This document shows, in pieces, positions 35,577 to 53,854 of a DNA stretch of 64,000 nt. Where the stretch lies: contig CASEVP010000014.1 of the NCBI GenBank assembly GCA_949291345.1, positions 6,457 to 70,456 of the forward strand, written 5' to 3'. Each line of letters starts with the position of its first letter. The stretch's first letter is position 1. The DNA is from an uncultured Ruminococcus sp. (GTDB taxonomy: Bacteria > Bacillota > Clostridia > Oscillospirales > Ruminococcaceae). Position numbers and translations under genes: made by a program. The notes below the pieces were generated by a model. It was not told where the DNA came from. It searched no databases and was given only the letters and a program-made list of their open reading frames with translations.

Positions 35577-37712
35577 TTAAATTGTTGCATCCAAAATTGC
35601 ATCGATAATCTCTGGATAATACCAACTGCATTTTTTTCGATTTAAAAGTCCGAATCCATCTGTCTGATTGCCGTCATCCCACAAAAAGCACTTGATACCA
35701 TGTGACTTAGCCTCACTGAGATAATACTGACACCATGCAGCACGAGCAGAAGTGTTTCCATTTTTATTTACTGTACCACATTCACCAATAATCAACGGGA
35801 TTCCCTGACTGACAAATTTTTCTTCCAGGTACTGGAACGTCTGGTTCAGTTCTTGTTTATCCGCATCACTTCCCCAATCGGCACGAGTATCATCCGGTCC
35901 ACAAAAATCCCATGGTGCATAGATATGCAATGATACAATGATATGTGCATCGTCCGGAATTTTCAATCCTTCAATCGCCTTTTTTTCCACAGACTGTGCA
36001 TAAGTTGTAACAATTAAAGAACGTTCTGCATTACCTCCTCCAGTACTGCGAACCGTATCTACAAATGCTTGAAACAACTGATTGATGCAGTCATAAGATT
36101 CCTGTGTCCCACCAGTCCATTCCTCTGCCGCACCCACAATACGTGGTTCGTTCATACCCTCAAAAATCAGTCTATGATCATAATCACGAAATGTAGTGCT
36201 AATCTGTCTCCAGATATTTGTAAGCACTGCTTTGTTATTTTCCAGCTTATCTTTGCTCTGCACAAGCCACAAATAGTCGTCATGATGCACATTAATGATA
36301 ACGTACAAGCCCAAATCATAGGCATAATCCACCACTTCTTTAACACGTGCCATCCAGTCGCTGTCGATTGTGCCGTCTGCTGACATATGTTCTCCCCAGG
36401 TAACAGGAATGCGAACGGCGTTGAATCCAGCTTTTTGAACCGTTTCAAACATTGCCTTTGTAGTCTTTGGGTTTCCCCAACCGGTCTCGGTATCATTGGA
36501 ATTGGTATTATAGCTATCCAGTGCGTTACCCAGATTCCAGCCTACCCGAATATCTTCCACGATCTCTACTGAAGTCATGGAATTGACTTCATCGCTAGTT
36601 GGCACATCACCAGAAATCACGACACTGTTATCACTGTTGTTATTCTCCGAATCCACTTCAGAATCTGTTTTTGTCGTAGTTCCCGTTGCATTACTGTAAC
36701 GTACGCTAATCTGATCCAGAGTAACCGTGCCCTGGTCACTCCACCAGTATCCCAGCATCACCACACCGTTGGGATCAATATATGCCTTAATATTATCCGG
36801 TACGATCCATGTCAAAGACAAATTACCGGAATCTGTAAACACACAAACATTTTGAGTTTGATACCAATTTTCATCAGTAGAATATGCTTCTCCTTCGTCT
36901 GTCAGAGAAACACCAAATGCACCGGTAAATTTTCCCAATGCACCATCACTGCTGATATCAAATGTCACTGTCTGCAATGTATCCTCGCTGCCAATCAAAT
37001 CCGCAAGATCAATTTTTGCCGATTTAGAGGACTCATCATTATAGTTCAGATGTACACCTAAATTGGTAGAATTTGTCCCATCTACCGGCACTTCACGGGT
37101 TCTGGTATATGTGCAGACAATGCTCGACAGCTTCACCTGCTCCACATTGCTCCACCAATGTCCAAACAATACTTCCCCATTTGGATCGATCTCCGTCTGG
37201 ATTTCCACCGGCACATTCCATGTAAACTCCGCATAGGCACTATTCTGAGACTGCTCAAAATCAGTCGCCTGATACCAGCCTTCATCGGTAGCGCTTGCAC
37301 AGCTTTCCTTTACCGAAACGCCATAACCGCCCTTATAGCTACCCAGACTTGTAGTACCGTTACCAGAATATACGATAAATGTGAAAGACTGAACAACATC
37401 TCCCTCTTCGATAAAATTACTTAAAGAGGCTTTATAGTGATTGGTATCATCACTTCCCCGATCCAAAATCGCATTGATGTCAGACAGTTCCGCTCCCAAT
37501 GTCGAGCTTACTATTTCTGTTGGGCTTACGTGTACAGTTGTGGTTTCTGTAATGCTTTCTGTTTCTGCCGAAGTGGATTCTGTTGTTTCTTGTACCATTG
37601 TTGATGACAATTTGGCATCATCTTCTGTTTTTCCACAGCCAACAAAAGCAGTTCCCGCCATCACTACCGCCAACATCACTGCCGCCAATTGTTTCCATAT
37701 TTTCATCTGCAT
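35577..37712 (-). CDS. Lipoprotein endoglucanase: two tandem CBM79/DUF5620-like modules plus GH5 catalytic domain
   Basis: Lipobox FVGC, S/T linker, two repeats ending TWnVP...GxWWS, then GWNLGN, RIPVTW, INVHH, FEGMNEP, HIY, IGECG, WDDG. Confidence 0.9.
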   Translation of the reverse strand: MQMKIWKQLAAVMLAVVMAGTAFVGCGKTEDDAKLSSTMVQETTESTSAETESITETTTVHVSPTEIVSSTLGAELSDINAILDRGSDDTNHYKASLSNFIEEGDVVQSFTFIVYSGNGTTSLGSYKGGYGVSVKESCASATDEGWYQATDFEQSQNSAYAEFTWNVPVEIQTEIDPNGEVLFGHWWSNVEQVKLSSIVCTYTRTREVPVDGTNSTNLGVHLNYNDESSKSAKIDLADLIGSEDTLQTVTFDISSDGALGKFTGAFGVSLTDEGEAYSTDENWYQTQNVCVFTDSGNLSLTWIVPDNIKAYIDPNGVVMLGYWWSDQGTVTLDQISVRYSNATGTTTKTDSEVDSENNNSDNSVVISGDVPTSDEVNSMTSVEIVEDIRVGWNLGNALDSYNTNSNDTETGWGNPKTTKAMFETVQKAGFNAVRIPVTWGEHMSADGTIDSDWMARVKEVVDYAYDLGLYVIINVHHDDYLWLVQSKDKLENNKAVLTNIWRQISTTFRDYDHRLIFEGMNEPRIVGAAEEWTGGTQESYDCINQLFQAFVDTVRSTGGGNAERSLIVTTYAQSVEKKAIEGLKIPDDAHIIVSLHIYAPWDFCGPDDTRADWGSDADKQELNQTFQYLEEKFVSQGIPLIIGECGTVNKNGNTSARAAWCQYYLSEAKSHGIKCFLWDDGNQTDGFGLLNRKKCSWYYPEIIDAILDATI

Positions 37713-37987
37713 TTTCTTCCTTTTTCCTATAATATTTCTGGTGCATTCGTCTATGAAAAAACGGCAGATGACGTAATGCTTTTCTGCATTCCACGGCATC
37801 CACCGCAATTTCCTAATATATTTCTTTCAATCAAAACAATACATTGATAACTGCACTGCAACAAAGACTTGCGTTAAAAATGCATCACCTAATCTTTTTC
37901 CGCAAAACATATGCAAGAGTATATTTCCTGCATTGCTGCGGCACGTGGATACATGACAAACAATACTTGTCCGTATCTTACCTTGAA

Positions 37988-38569
37988 TTAATCCAATTTT
38001 ACAATTTCACCCATCAGATCACGTGAAGCACTGATGGCATTGGATTCATCTGTATCAATATGCATTGCTGTTGCATAGCTGGGAGACACACGACAAACAA
38101 CATCACCCAGAATCGCCTTTCTGCCGTCTGTATCAACCTTGACCCATACAACATCTTTATCCTTTACACCAAATTTTTCCGCATCCTCCGGTGTAAAGTG
38201 AATGTGACGTTTTGCCACAATTACGCCTTCAGAAATCTCCAATTGACCCGAAGGTCCAATAATAGTACACGCACCGGAATTTGCAATGTCGCCGGATTCG
38301 CGTATTGGCGCTGCAATGCCAATCGAGCGTGCATCCGTTGCAGACAATTCCACCTGATTTGCACTACGGAACGGGCCCAAAATCGACACATTTGGCAACT
38401 GCTTTTTAGGTCCAACAATGGTCACACGTTCTTCACTCGCAAACTGCCCCGGCTGAGACAGCATTTTTTTGACAGTCAGCTCCTTGCCGGCACCAAATAA
38501 TACTTCAAATGCCTCTTTTGTTAAGTGCACATGTCTTGCAGATGTTTCAACAATAAATTTTTCAGACAT
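37988..38569 (-). CDS. pduL: PduL-type phosphate acyltransferase
   Basis: SARHVHL, LSQPGQF, RESGD, AKRHIH, MHIDTDE. Confidence 0.93.
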   Translation of the reverse strand: MSEKFIVETSARHVHLTKEAFEVLFGAGKELTVKKMLSQPGQFASEERVTIVGPKKQLPNVSILGPFRSANQVELSATDARSIGIAAPIRESGDIANSGACTIIGPSGQLEISEGVIVAKRHIHFTPEDAEKFGVKDKDVVWVKVDTDGRKAILGDVVCRVSPSYATAMHIDTDESNAISASRDLMGEIVKLD

Positions 38570-43852: not shown

Positions 43853-44617
43853 TTAATCGGTATCCTTGTGAATTTCTTCTCGCAGTCGTTCTTTGATACC
43901 TTCCAAAATAATATTTTTTGCCTCTATCGCCTGTTCTTTTGTTGCTGGAGGAACACCCTTTAACGGGTAATCAATCCCTAAATTCTCATATTTCACTTCA
44001 CCCATAGTATGATACGGCAAAACGTCCAATGCTTTCAAATTATCTAGGTCTGCTAGGAATCTCCCCAGTTGATGCAAATATTTTTCATTCAGAGTATATC
44101 CGGGTACCACGACATGACGAATCCAGACTGGTATCTTTTTTTCCTTCAGATACATGGCAAATTCTAAAATATGCTGATTGCTATGTTTGGTCAGTTTTAT
44201 ATGCTCTTGTTCATCAATATGTTTGATATCCAGCATAACCAAATCTGTCACTGCCATTAGCCGATCAAACTCTGCTCGCTTCTCCGACCGATACAGTATA
44301 CCAGATGTGTCCAAACAAGTATGGATTTTCTTTTTCTTTGCCGCCTCAAACAGTTCGGTCAAAAATTCCATTTGTACCAGCGGTTCACCACCAGTTGCTG
44401 TGATACCGCCTCCCTGCAAAAATTCTTTCACGCCATCGTATTCATCCAAAATAGATTGCACCGTCCGCAGATTACCATCGCCACCACCAATTGTCCACGT
44501 ATCCGGATTATGACAGTAAAGACAGCGCATAGGACATCCCTGATAAAATATAACAAATCGTATACCGGGTCCGTCTACGGTACCGAAACTCTCTGTCGAA
44601 TGTATATGCCCTTTCAT
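43853..44617 (-). CDS. pflA: Pyruvate formate-lyase activating enzyme
   Basis: ESFGTVDGPG, GCPMRCLYCHNPDTW, TGGEP, LPYHTMG. Confidence 0.97.
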   Translation of the reverse strand: MKGHIHSTESFGTVDGPGIRFVIFYQGCPMRCLYCHNPDTWTIGGGDGNLRTVQSILDEYDGVKEFLQGGGITATGGEPLVQMEFLTELFEAAKKKKIHTCLDTSGILYRSEKRAEFDRLMAVTDLVMLDIKHIDEQEHIKLTKHSNQHILEFAMYLKEKKIPVWIRHVVVPGYTLNEKYLHQLGRFLADLDNLKALDVLPYHTMGEVKYENLGIDYPLKGVPPATKEQAIEAKNIILEGIKERLREEIHKDTD

Positions 44618-44731
44618 CTGCTTACCCTCCTTTTTTCATTTGATATGACAATGGGCGCACAGCATCTGTACGCCGTACGCCCACTGCAATCATTCAGCAA
44701 TTGTTATATTTCACACAATTTATTTTTCCCA

Positions 44732-44971
44732 TCAAAGACCAGCATGGAATGTTCTGGAAATGACATCATCTTGCTGTTCCTTTGTCAGCTTAATAAAGTT
44801 TACCGCATAGCCGCTGACACGAATCGTCAGTTGCGGATACTTTTCCGGATGCTGCTGTGCATCCAGCAATGTTTCACGATTCAAAACATTTACATTCAGA
44901 TGATGACCACCTTTTTCAGCATAGCCGTCCAACAATCCTACCAGATTTTCAATTTGCTTTTCGTTTGCCAT
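44732..44971 (-). CDS. Stand-alone glycyl-radical domain of PFL (79 aa; GrcA/YfiD-like)
   Basis: [18 protein letters not shown]...[16 protein letters not shown]; own strong RBS AAAGGAGG. Confidence 0.93.
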
Positions 44972-45028: not shown

Positions 45029-45238
45029 TTACTCATCTTCTATAAATTCAGTCGGCTGACAACATGCCATGTTTCCTTTTGAGCAATCCATACTCCGATA
45101 AGTCTTTACACTCATGCCGTCACTCATCAGTTCATCTTCTGAAATGGTCAAATGACCGCTGCCATTTTCCATCAGCTTTTCAATCATATCGACCAATTCA
45201 TCAGACTTATCCTGATCTTTCAGTTCATGTTGTGCCAT
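45029..45238 (-). CDS. Small acidic Cys-containing protein inside the pfl operon (69 aa)
   Basis: AAGGAGG RBS; fills the gap between pflB and the radical-domain gene; N-half resembles the radical-domain N-terminus. Confidence 0.82.
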   Translation of the reverse strand: MAQHELKDQDKSDELVDMIEKLMENGSGHLTISEDELMSDGMSVKTYRSMDCSKGNMACCQPTEFIEDE

Positions 45239-45282
45239 GACACTCCGCCTCCTTCCAAAATTTTAAAACCTTTTGCGTTTGA

Positions 45283-47370
45283 TTATTCTTTTTCCATTGC
45301 TTCACGAATGGAGGCAATATCGATATCACCTGCAAATACAGAAGAATCCTTACCTAAAGCATCCGGAATAATGGTAAATGTATTCGAAATGCCATCCTGT
45401 GCATTCTTCCATGGCAGTTTCGCAACAGACGCCATAGATGCTGCTGCACCGTGTGTATCACGACCATGCATCGGGTTTGCACCAGGAGCCAACGGCTGAC
45501 CCTTCTTACGACCATCCGGTGTGTTACCGGTCTTTTTACCGTATACTACGTTGGAAGTAATAGTCAGGATAGAAGTTGTCGGAACACCGTTTCTATAGCA
45601 ATAATTGCTGCGGATCATATCCATAAACTTATTCAGGATTTCTACTGCAATGCTGTCTACACGGTCATCATTGTTGCCATACTTCGGGAAATCGCCTTCA
45701 ACTTCAAAGTCTACTACTACACCATATTCATCACGAATGCACTTTACCTTTGCATACTTAATTGCAGACAAGGAATCAGCAACAACGGACATACCAGCGA
45801 TACCAGTTGCAAAGTAGCGCTTGACATCTCTATCATGCAGTGCCATTTGCAATGCTTCATAACAATATTTATCGTGCATATAGTGAATGCAGTTGAGCGT
45901 ATCTACATATAGCTTTGCCAGCCATTCCATCATATCGATGTACTTTTCCATTACATCGTCATAATCCAGATAATCGCCTTCTACTTTGCGATACTTTGGA
46001 CCCACCTGATTATGCTTGCCGGTCTTTGCATCGATTCTTTCATCAACACCGCCGTTAATTGCATACAGCAAGCACTTCGCAAGATTTGCACGAGCACCAA
46101 AGAATTGCATTTCCTTACCAACACGCATAGAAGATACACAACAAGCAATCGCATAATCATCGCCGTGTGTCACACGCATCAAGTCATCGTTTTCGTACTG
46201 GAATGAAGAGGTGTTGATAGACAACTTTGCACAATAATGTTTAAACGCTGTCGGCAATCTCTTAGACCACAGTACAGTCAGGTTCGGCTCCGGAGCAGTA
46301 CCTAGGTTTTCCAGTGTATGCAGATAACGGAAACTGGTCTTAGTAACCAGCGTTCTGCCATCGATACCCATACCGCCGATAGATTCAGTTACCCACTGCG
46401 GATCACCGGAGAACAATGCGTTGTATTCAGGTGTTCTAGCAAACTTTACCATACGCAGCTTCATAATAAAGTGGTCAATATATTCCTGTGCCTGTTCTTC
46501 TGTCAAAATGCCATTTTCTAGGTCACGCTGAATATAGATATCCAAGAATGTGGAAGTACGACCGAGGCTCATTGCTGCACCGTTCTGATCCTTTACTGCT
46601 GCAAGATATGCGAAATATGTCCACTGGATTGCTTCCTTCGCATTGGCAGCCGGCTTAGAAATATCATATCCATACTTGGAAGCCATGTTCTTCAAAGCCT
46701 TCAGTGCCTTAATCTGATCTGCCAATTCTTCACGCAAACGGATCTTTTCTTCTGTCATCGTACCACAAACTGTAGACTTCTGATACTCCTTGTCTGCAAT
46801 CAGACGATCTACACCATACAATGCAACACGACGATAATCACCAATAATACGACCACGGCCATACGCATCCGGCAAACCAGTGATAATTGCATTATGACGA
46901 GCAGAACGCATCTCTGGTGTATATACATCAAATACACCCTCGTTGTGTGTCTTTCTATAGTGCTTGAAAATGTAACTAATCTCCGGATCTACTTCATAGC
47001 CATAAGACTTACATGCCTCTTCTGCCATACGGATACCGCCAAACGGCTGCAACGAACGCTTGAGAGGCTTATCTGTCTGCAAACCAACGATCTGCTCCAG
47101 ATCTTTGTGAATATAGCCTGCATCATGTGAATCTACTGTAGATACGATTTTGGTGTCCATATCCAGGACGCCGCCATTTTCACGTTCCTGCTTAAACAGC
47201 TCCATTACTTCGTTCCACAGTGTCTTTGTTGCTTCTGTCGGTCCTGCCAGAAAACTCTCATCGCCCTCATACGGGGTATAGTTCTTCTGAATAAAATCCC
47301 GTACGTCGATCGACTTTTCCCATGCACCGCCGACGAAACCTTCCCATGCGTTTGCCATAGTATCTGCCAT
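45283..47370 (-). CDS. pflB: Pyruvate formate-lyase lacking the C-terminal glycyl-radical domain
   Basis: [23 protein letters not shown], active-site IACCVS, PGANP, DGISNT; stops 20 aa after ALGKD with no RVSGY. Confidence 0.95.
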
Positions 47371-47511: not shown

Positions 47512-47540
47512 ATAATAACACATCTCAACTAGGATGTCAA
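47512..47540 (-). promoter_or_regulatory. Sigma-A promoter of the pfl operon
   Basis: TTGACA-17 nt-TATTAT with TG extension. Confidence 0.7.
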
Positions 47541-51505: not shown

Positions 51506-53854
51506 ATGACATTAAATGAATTAAAACGTGGAAAATCTGCGTATGTGGTATCAGTGGGCGGTAACGGTGCATTACGGCAGCATTTTCTGGATATGGGCAT
51601 CATTCCTGGTGCTGAAATCACTATGGTAAAACTGGCTCCCATGGGGGATCCCATGGAATTACGAATTCACAGCTATGAACTGACGCTCCGGCTTGCAGAC
51701 GCCGCACAAATTAAAATAGAAAATGTGCATGATGCAAAGGCACCAAAAGGACAAAACATTCGAAAAAAAGTGGTAAACCATCCCGGTTTGGGCGAAGGCG
51801 GTAAATTCCACGTTAAAGCGGATGAACATCCCCTTCCGGAAGGAACAACAATCACATTTGCTCTTGCCGGCAACCAAAACTGTGGAAAAACTACATTGTT
51901 TAACCGCTTAACAGGATCCAATCAACATGTAGGAAATTTCCCCGGCGTAACAGTGGATCGTAAAGACGGGGAAATCCGTGGACATGAAAATACACTAGTA
52001 ACTGACTTGCCTGGAATATACTCTATGTCCCCCTATACCAACGAAGAAATCGTTACACGGCAATTCGTTCTGGAAGAAAAACCAAAAGGCATCATCAACA
52101 TTGCTGATGCCACCAATATTGAACGAAATCTTTATCTAACTATGCAGTTGATGGAACTGGATATTCCTATGGTGCTGGCATTAAACATGATGGACGAAGT
52201 TCGTGAAAACGGCGGTTCAATTCTTGTCAATGAAATGGAGGCACGGCTGGGGATCCCAGTGGTTCCCATCTCTGCCGCAAAAAACGAAGGAATTGATGAA
52301 CTGATTGATCATGCCATTCATGTAGCACAATACCAAGAACGGCCCGGACGCATTGACTTCTGCCGAGAATCGGATGACGGCGGTGCAGTACACCGTTGTC
52401 TCCATGCCATTATGCACACGATAGAAGACCATGCCAAATTTGCCGGCATACCTGTTCGTTTCGCTGCTGCAAAACTGGTCGAGGGAGATACGTTAATCAT
52501 GGAAAAGCTCGACCTTACCCAGAACGAAAAAGAACTGCTTGAACACATTATTGTTCAAATGGAAGAAGAACGCGGTCTGGACCGAGCTGCTGCCATCGCT
52601 GATATGAGATTCAAATTTATTGAAAGCATCTGCAGCGAAACGGTCATTAAACCGCAGGAGAGCAAAGAGCACATACGAAGCACCAGAATTGACAAAATTC
52701 TTACCGGAAAATTCACCGCTATTCCCGGTTTTATTCTAATCATGGCACTGGTATTCTTTCTCACTTTCCATGTCATAGGTGCCGCACTCTCCAGTGTTCT
52801 GGAATGGTTAATTGATTTTGCAACAGATAAAGTAGATGCTCTCCTAACTGCATCGAATGTCAATGATGTGCTCCACGCACTCATTATTGACGGCATTTTT
52901 AATGGTGTAGGCAGCGTTTTAAGCTTTTTACCCACCATTGTCACTCTCTTCTTCTTCCTCTCTCTTTTGGAAGACAGCGGTTATATGGCACGTGTTGCGT
53001 TTGTTATGGACAAACTTCTGCGAAAAATTGGACTTTCTGGTCGCAGCATTGTTCCCATGCTGATTGGTTTCGGATGCACAGTGCCAGGTGTAATGGCAAC
53101 TCGAACACTTCCTTCTGAACGAGACCGCAAAATGACCATTCTCCTGACTCCGTTCATGAGTTGTTCTGCAAAACTGCCGATATACCTCTTCTTTACTGCG
53201 GCATTCTTTCCCAAATGGGGTGGACTTGTTATGGTCATTCTCTATTTTGGGGGTATATTATTGGGAATTCTTACTGCTCTTCTCATGAAAAACACACTTT
53301 TTAAAGGAAATGCGGTTCCCTTTGTCATGGAACTACCAAACTATCGTATGCCAAGTTTAAAAAATGTGGGGCAACTGCTGTGGGAAAAAGCAAAGGATTT
53401 CTTACAACGTGCCTTTACTGTAATATTTATTGGCACAATCGTTATCTGGTTCCTACAAACCTTTGATTCACACTTGAACGTTGTATCTGATTCACAAAAC
53501 AGTCTACTCGCCTCTGTCGCTGGCATCGTTGCACCGATTTTTCAGCCACTTGGATTTGGCGACTGGCGAATCTCTACCGCTCTTATCTCTGGTTTTATCG
53601 CTAAAGAAAGCGTGGTTTCTACACTCTCTGTCTTATTTGGATCTACTTCCAGTTTGATGGAAGTACTCACGCCGCTCGCCGCTGTCTCTCTTCTGGTCTT
53701 CTGCCTGCTGTATACCCCATGCGTTGCCGCTATTGCCGCCATACGCCGGGAACTTGGCAGCAAATGGGCTATTTTTGTTGTAGTCATGCAATGCGTCATC
53801 GCCTGGGTGGCTGCATCTGTTGTGCATCTGATCGGACTTCTTATTGTGGGGTGA
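51506..53854 (+). CDS. feoB: Ferrous iron transporter, FeoA-FeoB fusion
   Basis: N-terminal FeoA (DMGIIPG, APMGDP), GNQNCGKT, GNFPGVTV, DLPG, NMMD, LEDSGY, PFMSCSAKL. Confidence 0.96.
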   Translation: MTLNELKRGKSAYVVSVGGNGALRQHFLDMGIIPGAEITMVKLAPMGDPMELRIHSYELTLRLADAAQIKIENVHDAKAPKGQNIRKKVVNHPGLGEGGKFHVKADEHPLPEGTTITFALAGNQNCGKTTLFNRLTGSNQHVGNFPGVTVDRKDGEIRGHENTLVTDLPGIYSMSPYTNEEIVTRQFVLEEKPKGIINIADATNIERNLYLTMQLMELDIPMVLALNMMDEVRENGGSILVNEMEARLGIPVVPISAAKNEGIDELIDHAIHVAQYQERPGRIDFCRESDDGGAVHRCLHAIMHTIEDHAKFAGIPVRFAAAKLVEGDTLIMEKLDLTQNEKELLEHIIVQMEEERGLDRAAAIADMRFKFIESICSETVIKPQESKEHIRSTRIDKILTGKFTAIPGFILIMALVFFLTFHVIGAALSSVLEWLIDFATDKVDALLTASNVNDVLHALIIDGIFNGVGSVLSFLPTIVTLFFFLSLLEDSGYMARVAFVMDKLLRKIGLSGRSIVPMLIGFGCTVPGVMATRTLPSERDRKMTILLTPFMSCSAKLPIYLFFTAAFFPKWGGLVMVILYFGGILLGILTALLMKNTLFKGNAVPFVMELPNYRMPSLKNVGQLLWEKAKDFLQRAFTVIFIGTIVIWFLQTFDSHLNVVSDSQNSLLASVAGIVAPIFQPLGFGDWRISTALISGFIAKESVVSTLSVLFGSTSSLMEVLTPLAAVSLLVFCLLYTPCVAAIAAIRRELGSKWAIFVVVMQCVIAWVAASVVHLIGLLIVG

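Follow-up and report, generated by a model that had tools for sequence, protein, structure and literature searches.

A small cysteine-bearing protein encoded within the split PFL operon of Ruminococcus and related Clostridia

PFL has a central place in the fermentation of gut and rumen anaerobes and is destroyed by O2. In the window, the whole stretch of 64,000 nucleotides of Ruminococcus DNA that was analysed, the minus strand carries an operon in the order pflB (truncated)-orf69-grcA3-pflA, with a 69-residue protein encoded between the two parts of a PFL. The PflB protein corresponds to positions 1–665 of the 744 positions of TIGR01255. The 79-aa protein corresponds to positions 663–742 of the same model and is recognized by NF038360, the NCBIfam model for GrcA3, with 165.9 bits against a cut-off of 158. 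Since both PFL halves match known models, the split itself is already half-annotated. The truncated PflB is the sole PFL found in the genome of the window, which is 80% complete; its close relatives have titles that name Ruminococcus, among them R. callidus at 87–90% identity. The orf69 protein matched no family in Pfam or NCBIfam, and its relatives, where the sources name them, are called "hypothetical protein". The coordinates of the features are given in Table 1.

Table 1. Features of the split PFL locus, in positions of the window
Feature	Position	Strand	Basis or remark
orf69, 69 aa, GrcA3-like docking half and Cys module	45029..45238	-	ORF list, homologues, dN/dS
orf69 residues 11-34, helix and G-x-G-H strand	45137..45208	-	homology to residues 6-29 of GrcA3 and, in ordinary PFL, to strand 10 and the helix that precedes it
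orf69 residues 44-69, Cys module (V44, T46, C52, A58, invariant C59 and P62, acidic end)	45032..45109	-	homologous to cis-type PflB tails
RBS of orf69, AAGGAGG	45248..45254	-	9 nt before ATG; sequence
pflB catalytic body, 695 aa, without glycyl-radical domain, active-site Cys410/Cys411	45283..47370	-	
PflB C-terminal extension, F-x-G-D-I/L-D motif, without Cys here	45286..45354	-	in cis-type relatives the Cys module follows the motif
grcA3, 79-aa autonomous glycyl-radical subunit, Gly54 in RVSGY	44732..44971	-	
pflA, PFL-activating radical SAM enzyme	43853..44617	-	TIGR02493 over cut-off
sigma-70-like promoter upstream of pflB	47512..47540	-	11/12 match; consensus match only
18-bp stem hairpin between grcA3 and pflA	44648..44687	-	z -5.1, 0/200 shuffles fold as well

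The small open reading frame is a real gene. Homologues were found in 32 of 36 same-genus genomes. Of 33 matching loci, the best 30 all keep the order pflB-orf69-grcA3 (30/30), and 29 of these also showed pflA. When all genomes were scanned, the split-PFL operon surrounded the orf69 homologue at 49 of 50 loci. Comparison with 17 relatives yielded dN/dS values of 0.02–0.06 in seven pairs and 0.22 in one, the other nine being saturated at synonymous sites, and a pN of 0–0.08 over residues 44–64. As the first-pass annotation had stated, orf69 lies inside the PFL operon and has its own RBS. Its place is between pflB and grcA3, and an SD-like word also precedes 30 of 34 starts in the family, by a loose test with no background. 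RNA-library contigs from two studies (4 of the 20 listed runs) span orf69 and both its junctions; such contigs cannot prove a single transcript or its level, and uncovered flanks were left out as evidence. Read-through of the orf69 stop into GrcA3 was considered as a candidate and rejected: here the two are in frame with one TAA, but the spacing shifts the frame in relatives.

The hairpin between grcA3 and pflA received no U-tract call, and two RNA contigs of one study end inside it; it may set the ratio of pflA to pflB. Elsewhere in the window are ORFs that we take to encode a PduL-type phosphotransacylase (37988–38569, minus strand), a family-5 glycoside hydrolase lipoprotein (35577–37808, minus strand) and FeoAB (51506–53854, plus strand).

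The extent of the family depends on the profile used. Single-sequence and genus-only profiles miss most distant members, with matches in 0/24 other-family genomes and, among 300 genomes of the order, one true match and two chance matches. With a broad profile, 311 clusters at 50% identity were matched; the listing covers the best 150. Five of the 400 genomes of the class that were scored have a full orf69 gene, each time beside grcA3.

The first-pass annotation described orf69 as a radical-less paralogue of the PFL module, on the basis of an ungapped alignment with the 79-aa protein. For the single pair this alignment is weak (6/28 identities, BLASTP E 0.007, with 13 of 5000 shuffles scoring as well), and it is marginal because this clade replaced two of the best-conserved residues of the family; in the orf69 of the window, Glu and Thr stand in place of the conserved D and N. 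At the family level the alignment is firm. HHalign of the orf69-family profile against the GrcA3 profile gave 95.1% with E 3.4e-8, and a second run gave 95.8% with E 6.8e-9 over 32 columns. Weak matches to NF038360 at E≤0.05, the best being 1.5e-6, were obtained for 80 of 149 family members, and none of the other NCBIfam models (18,950 in total) was matched by more than one of the 149. A search of the frames of the window's genome (22,239-entry database) with an HMM of the N-terminal half retrieved orf69 and GrcA3 alone at E<0.01; built without GrcA3, this HMM recovered 63/64 GrcA3 proteins at E<0.01. In the whole genomes of the family sample, its weak matches fell on GrcA3 and also on ordinary PFL frames of 740–800 codons, in the same places as the matches of the GrcA3 model, a pattern repeated in the class sample.

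The docking positions that correspond to GrcA3 invariants are kept at D15 (98%), G21 (89%), H24 (85%) and N26 (81%; 95 rows), as are L10 and the hydrophobic pattern, while the invariants N9, G16, H23 and N28 of GrcA3 are lost in the family. The missing radical loop is a family trait, since RVxGY is absent from orf69 and from 146/146 representatives. HHalign, the N-half HMM and the NF038360 matches thus agree that the N-terminal half of orf69 is, judged from sequence, a radical-less paralogue of the helix and strand 10 of GrcA3. The structure model of orf69 (pLDDT 58.6) comprises a helix at residues 3–25, strands at 29–31 and 45–47, and a coil end; Foldseek with this weak model returned no match at E≤0.001. 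PDB sequence searches, PHROGs and the ESM Atlas gave nothing informative on orf69, the last returning "hypothetical protein" clusters only.

In the C-terminal half, the conserved unit is C-x4-6-A-C-x-x-P. Among the 146 representatives, C59 and P62 are present in 100%, A58 in 93% and C52 in 89%; the G-x-G-H strand is conserved as well. All 146 have at least two cysteines; just two occur in 76, mostly spaced by 4–6 residues (range 1 to 9), and three to five in the other 70. The proteins are acidic, with a median net charge of −10. The first-pass annotation also took the ACC of this half as an echo of the IACCVS active site of PFL. This resemblance was rejected, given that the second Cys of the ACC (C60) is found in 17% of the representatives and that the C-half HMM matched no active-site region in 71 PflB proteins. 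A PFL-like Pfam match of orf69 (E 0.077) was likewise discarded, being present in only 2 of 43 members.

Split loci picked with the GrcA3 model, independently of orf69, fall into three types. In the trans type there is a separate orf69 gene and the PflB tail has no Cys; in the cis type there is no orf69 gene and PflB ends in a Cys tail, e.g. CSNGACSSPTLFEGLD; in the minimal type PflB stops right after LGK/LGR, with neither extension nor Cys module. The 51 re-fetched split loci included 23 trans, 24 cis, none with both and four with neither at the locus, a count that leaves out the trans loci of the window itself, G011, G480, G411 and G840 and the minimal locus of G768. One of the four, G435, which has an extended tail, lacks both an orf69 gene and tail cysteines in its split-PFL operon and has a full orf69 homologue on another contig (L220:3264-3467, G435:C5), directly behind a gene that is presumably dCMP-deaminase-like. 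In the 201-genome family sample, 37 genomes (18%) were positive for GrcA3, 25 of them with the gene, 12 with the tail and none with both, and no full-length orf69 match was found in genomes of this sample without GrcA3. The proposed co-occurrence with split PFL was thereby borne out. The description of the system as a three-part enzyme fits roughly half of the split operons. The others consist of two parts, and the module is missing from four minimal splits.

Cis and trans forms are intermingled on the PflB tree, and the cis form needs at least five changes on well-supported branches, with no direction assigned. The Fisher p of 1.6e-12 overstates the complementarity of the two forms because there are only four independent pairs; the phylogenetically independent test on these pairs, all on well-supported branches, gives p 0.125. 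The F-x-G-D-I/L-D extension of PflB occurs in 24/24 cis, 35/36 trans and 1/4 other tails, so the extension and the Cys module travel together. This extension and the G-H-V/L-N-V strand share a G-x-hydrophobic-x-hydrophobic pattern, and the extension may also form a strand, one that would attach to a cartridge or to the slot. At nine of the 36 trans loci (L102-L104, L141, L148, L153, L155, L159, L160) there is no pflA in the fetched stretch, some stretches being short or at a contig edge.

Matches of the C-half HMM at E<0.01 were confined to 13 of 24 cis tails, with 0/35 trans, 0/8 fused and 0/4 other PflB. By this similarity, the C-terminal half of orf69 is homologous to the Cys tails fused to PflB. 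Ten of the 24 cis tails were unmatched even at E<1 and have other Cys clusters (CAC, CGCC, CPSC, CC). One cis tail was matched by 885 PFL-length clusters, and the 120 listed all have two or three tail cysteines. The Cys region is a low-confidence coil in the models of both orf69 and a cis PflB, and in the latter the tail residues 654–699 have a pLDDT under 50. In the trans form the distance from the strand His to the Cys has a median of 29 residues (range 20–53; 115/146 parsed), and in the cis tails the distance from the strand-9 Phe to the Cys also has a median of 29 (range 27–40; 18/24 parsed); in GrcA3, His24 and the radical Gly54 are 30 residues apart. Given linkers of 20 to 53 residues, this 29/30 register may be loose.

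No Cys module was found in the four minimal split PFLs (G659, G841, G870 and G768), and a cis-tail profile had no match in five genomes (these four and one with a fused PFL), in a run without a positive control. In the two minimal loci with ORFs listed (among L190, L191, L193 and L136), pflA lies upstream. The three minimal splits that were placed on the tree group with the fused PFLs, in a separate well-supported clade, and perhaps represent an independent split event. A one-chain PFL of 788 aa with a CxxC insert in the linker (G471, L172:308-2671) falls within the split clade on a long branch and may have arisen by re-fusion. A search for longer fused forms gave one match among 7991 candidates, a single-contig fusion with an ABC-ATPase, which is weak evidence. 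It and two similar hybrids, likewise on single contigs (P0070, P0036 and P0345 in all), join part of an orf69-like protein to the C-half of GrcA3, to a ParB-like piece or to an ABC ATPase; the three are probably assembly chimeras.

Among known systems, the closest likeness is to E. coli GrcA/YfiD (TIGR04365), GrcA2 (NF008341) and GrcA3 (NF038360), which are also small free proteins with the barrel-completing helix and strand. In contrast to these cofactors, orf69 has no RVxGY loop and no C-terminal helix and thus cannot carry the radical; it has instead a Cys module, and a homologue of this module can form part of the PflB tail by fusion. In the accessible part of PMC11528403, the glycyl-radical motif is defined as RVXG[FWY], and the absence of this motif in all 146 representatives sets orf69 apart from the GrcA cofactors; with no NCBIfam match, it also stays below the GrcA-family cut-offs.

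A second likeness is to the alpha tail of class I/II RNRs, which, as orf69 and the cis PflB tail, is a flexible C-terminus with two variably spaced cysteines in a ten-stranded barrel radical enzyme. According to the accessible text of PMC9669993 and PMC11903788, a disordered tail of class I and some class II RNRs re-reduces the active-site cysteines and is recharged by thioredoxin, with variable spacing in class II. RNR needs its Cys tail in every turnover, whereas PFL would need the module only after damage, and the module, unlike the RNR tail, often comes as a free-standing protein that includes a docking half. Neither the tail profile nor the family profile matched RNR chains in PDB sequences at E≤10, a search with little power for so short a motif. 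The Fe-S small subunits of glycyl-radical enzymes (HPAD gamma, BSS beta/gamma) are also small Cys proteins encoded with their enzyme, for which a redox role is described as proposed and unproven in the available portion of PMC13450708. They resemble HiPIP or rubredoxin and have four metal ligands, while orf69 has two conserved cysteines and derives from the enzyme's own C-terminus; four conserved ligands were not found in the orf69 family, in which 76/146 members have only two Cys.

We lean, at somewhat less than an even chance, to the reading that orf69 occupies the strand-10 slot left vacant in PflB, where its dithiol would protect or re-reduce Cys410/411 after O2 damage, by analogy with the Cys pair of the RNR tail. 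Strands 9 and 10 of the parallel half-barrel end on the same face. By their titles, the studies of Reddy in 1998 and Zhang in 2001 reportedly deal with an O2 attack on PFL that involves Cys419 and sulfinyl radicals. In glycyl-radical enzymes, the Gly loop comes after the second half-barrel and touches the Cys loop at the centre (PMC13450708), and O2 inactivation of PFL leads to cleavage at the glycine, as given in the accessible text of PMC12288474. O2 would cleave GrcA3 at its glycyl radical and so empty the slot, to which the helix and strand of orf69 would bind. C59 of the A-C59-x-x-P unit, about 29 residues past the strand His, would enter by the Gly-loop route and either form a mixed disulfide with Cys410/411 or reduce their sulfenic or disulfide form, with Cys52 as the resolving residue. 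Thioredoxin, of which the window's genome has two over the cut-off, would re-reduce orf69, and fresh GrcA3 would take its place. In cis operons, equivalent chemistry would be performed by the tail tethered at the end of strand 9. As cis operons have no docking half, the constant requirement would be the cysteine pair delivered to PflB, and we infer that the docking half is the address label of the trans form.

This dithiol reading is favoured by the complementarity of the loci (23 trans, 24 cis, none with both), by the invariant C59 and P62, and by the similar distance of the reactive residue downstream in GrcA3 and in the trans and cis forms. Against it stand the one-chain PFLs and the four minimal splits, which have no module; the divergent Cys pattern of 10/24 cis tails; the 70/146 members with three to five Cys, compatible with metal binding; the lost N9, G16, H23 and N28, along with the Glu/Thr substitutions of this member; and the failure of either profile to match an RNR chain. 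In addition, the cysteines of PFL, unlike those of RNR, are not oxidised during turnover, and thiols would not reduce a sulfinic end product. Of the roles first listed for orf69 (plug, inhibitor or redox guard), protection or reduction of the cysteines is the one now favoured, and any plug or inhibitor function based on the docking half can be dispensed with, since 24 split loci have the Cys tail without it.

The other explanations were weighed against the same observations. That orf69 is a functionless decaying duplicate or a spurious ORF, as its weak single-pair similarity and the lack of a Pfam or NCBIfam family might suggest, is refuted by the dN/dS of 0.02–0.06 in seven pairs, the 311 clusters, the invariant residues and the retention of the gene after relocation. 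A metal clasp or placeholder is possible, although on the unlikely side: orf69 would fill the open barrel of apo-PflB, and its cysteines, in a monomer, in a dimer or in a bridge to Cys410/411, would be ligands of Zn or Fe, which would make PflB more stable to proteolysis and ease the loading of GrcA3. The representatives with three to five Cys, some with a CxxC plus AC, and the acidic character of the protein point to this explanation, as does the binding of Fe-S by other small subunits of glycyl-radical enzymes (accessible part of PMC13450708). E. coli PFL cut at residue 695 speaks in the same direction: in the text available of PMC8683613, its binding to YfiD is undetectable by ITC and its activation 32-fold less, and cleaved PFL is protease-sensitive. 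However, the 76/146 members with only two Cys at a spacing of 1 to 9 do not resemble a fixed metal site, and the cis forms, without a docking half, make a placeholder dispensable.

A redox-gated inhibitor that competes with GrcA3 for the slot, its disulfide state setting the affinity so that PFL is off under oxidising conditions, would account for a docking half conserved without the radical loop and for a gene kept after leaving the operon in G435. We consider it unlikely, as orf69 is encoded in the operon beside the enzyme to be blocked and the cis forms keep the cysteines without the competing helix and strand. Little credence is given to a radical quencher or O2 guard acting on assembled PflB-GrcA3, in which thiols would give H to the glycyl or peroxyl radical and leave the chain uncleaved, as a deactivase would. 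The cis tail can coexist with bound GrcA3, and the topology would place the invariant Cys on a flexible tether near the Gly-loop face, but the docking half of the trans form would go into GrcA3's own slot, so that both could not share one protomer, and glycyl-radical domains lie at the dimer periphery (PMC13450708). Equally improbable to us is a partner other than the PflB barrel, namely PflA or GrcA3, as would be the case if orf69 kept the activase cluster Cys reduced or chaperoned free GrcA3. Although pflA is adjacent in 27/36 trans loci, the nine without it in the stretch keep orf69 between pflB and grcA3, the RVxGY loop that PflA recognises is missing from orf69, and the Cys module fuses to PflB.

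The literature on GrcA3 and split PFL, searched with most subscription journals and supplements outside its scope, yielded no description of the orf69 protein, and we regard orf69 as a genuine and undescribed third component of a split PFL that is annotated in part. To our knowledge, only the radical end of PFL has known spare parts. A 2026 review, in its accessible part, lists small subunits for HPAD, BSS and MASS only, and spare parts of the YfiD type only (PMC13450708). E. coli PFL cut at the point where the PflB of the window ends is poorly rescued (PMC8683613), which lends interest to a PflB that is naturally truncated and has helpers. Tentatively, and as a possibility more than an expectation, split-PFL Clostridia might run a two-cartridge maintenance cycle, in which a disposable GrcA3 and a dithiol cartridge that repairs the catalytic cysteines use the same slot. 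In the sampled family, 18% of the genomes (37/201) use a truncated PFL, always with a Cys module. If such a maintenance cycle is real, no glycyl-radical enzyme before this one would have had a thiol-repair subunit; orf69 would be a case of convergence with the RNR tail, and the cis and trans versions would be natural controls. As a 69-residue protein with two key Cys and natural fused versions, it is directly testable and could inform the engineering of O2-tolerant PFL.
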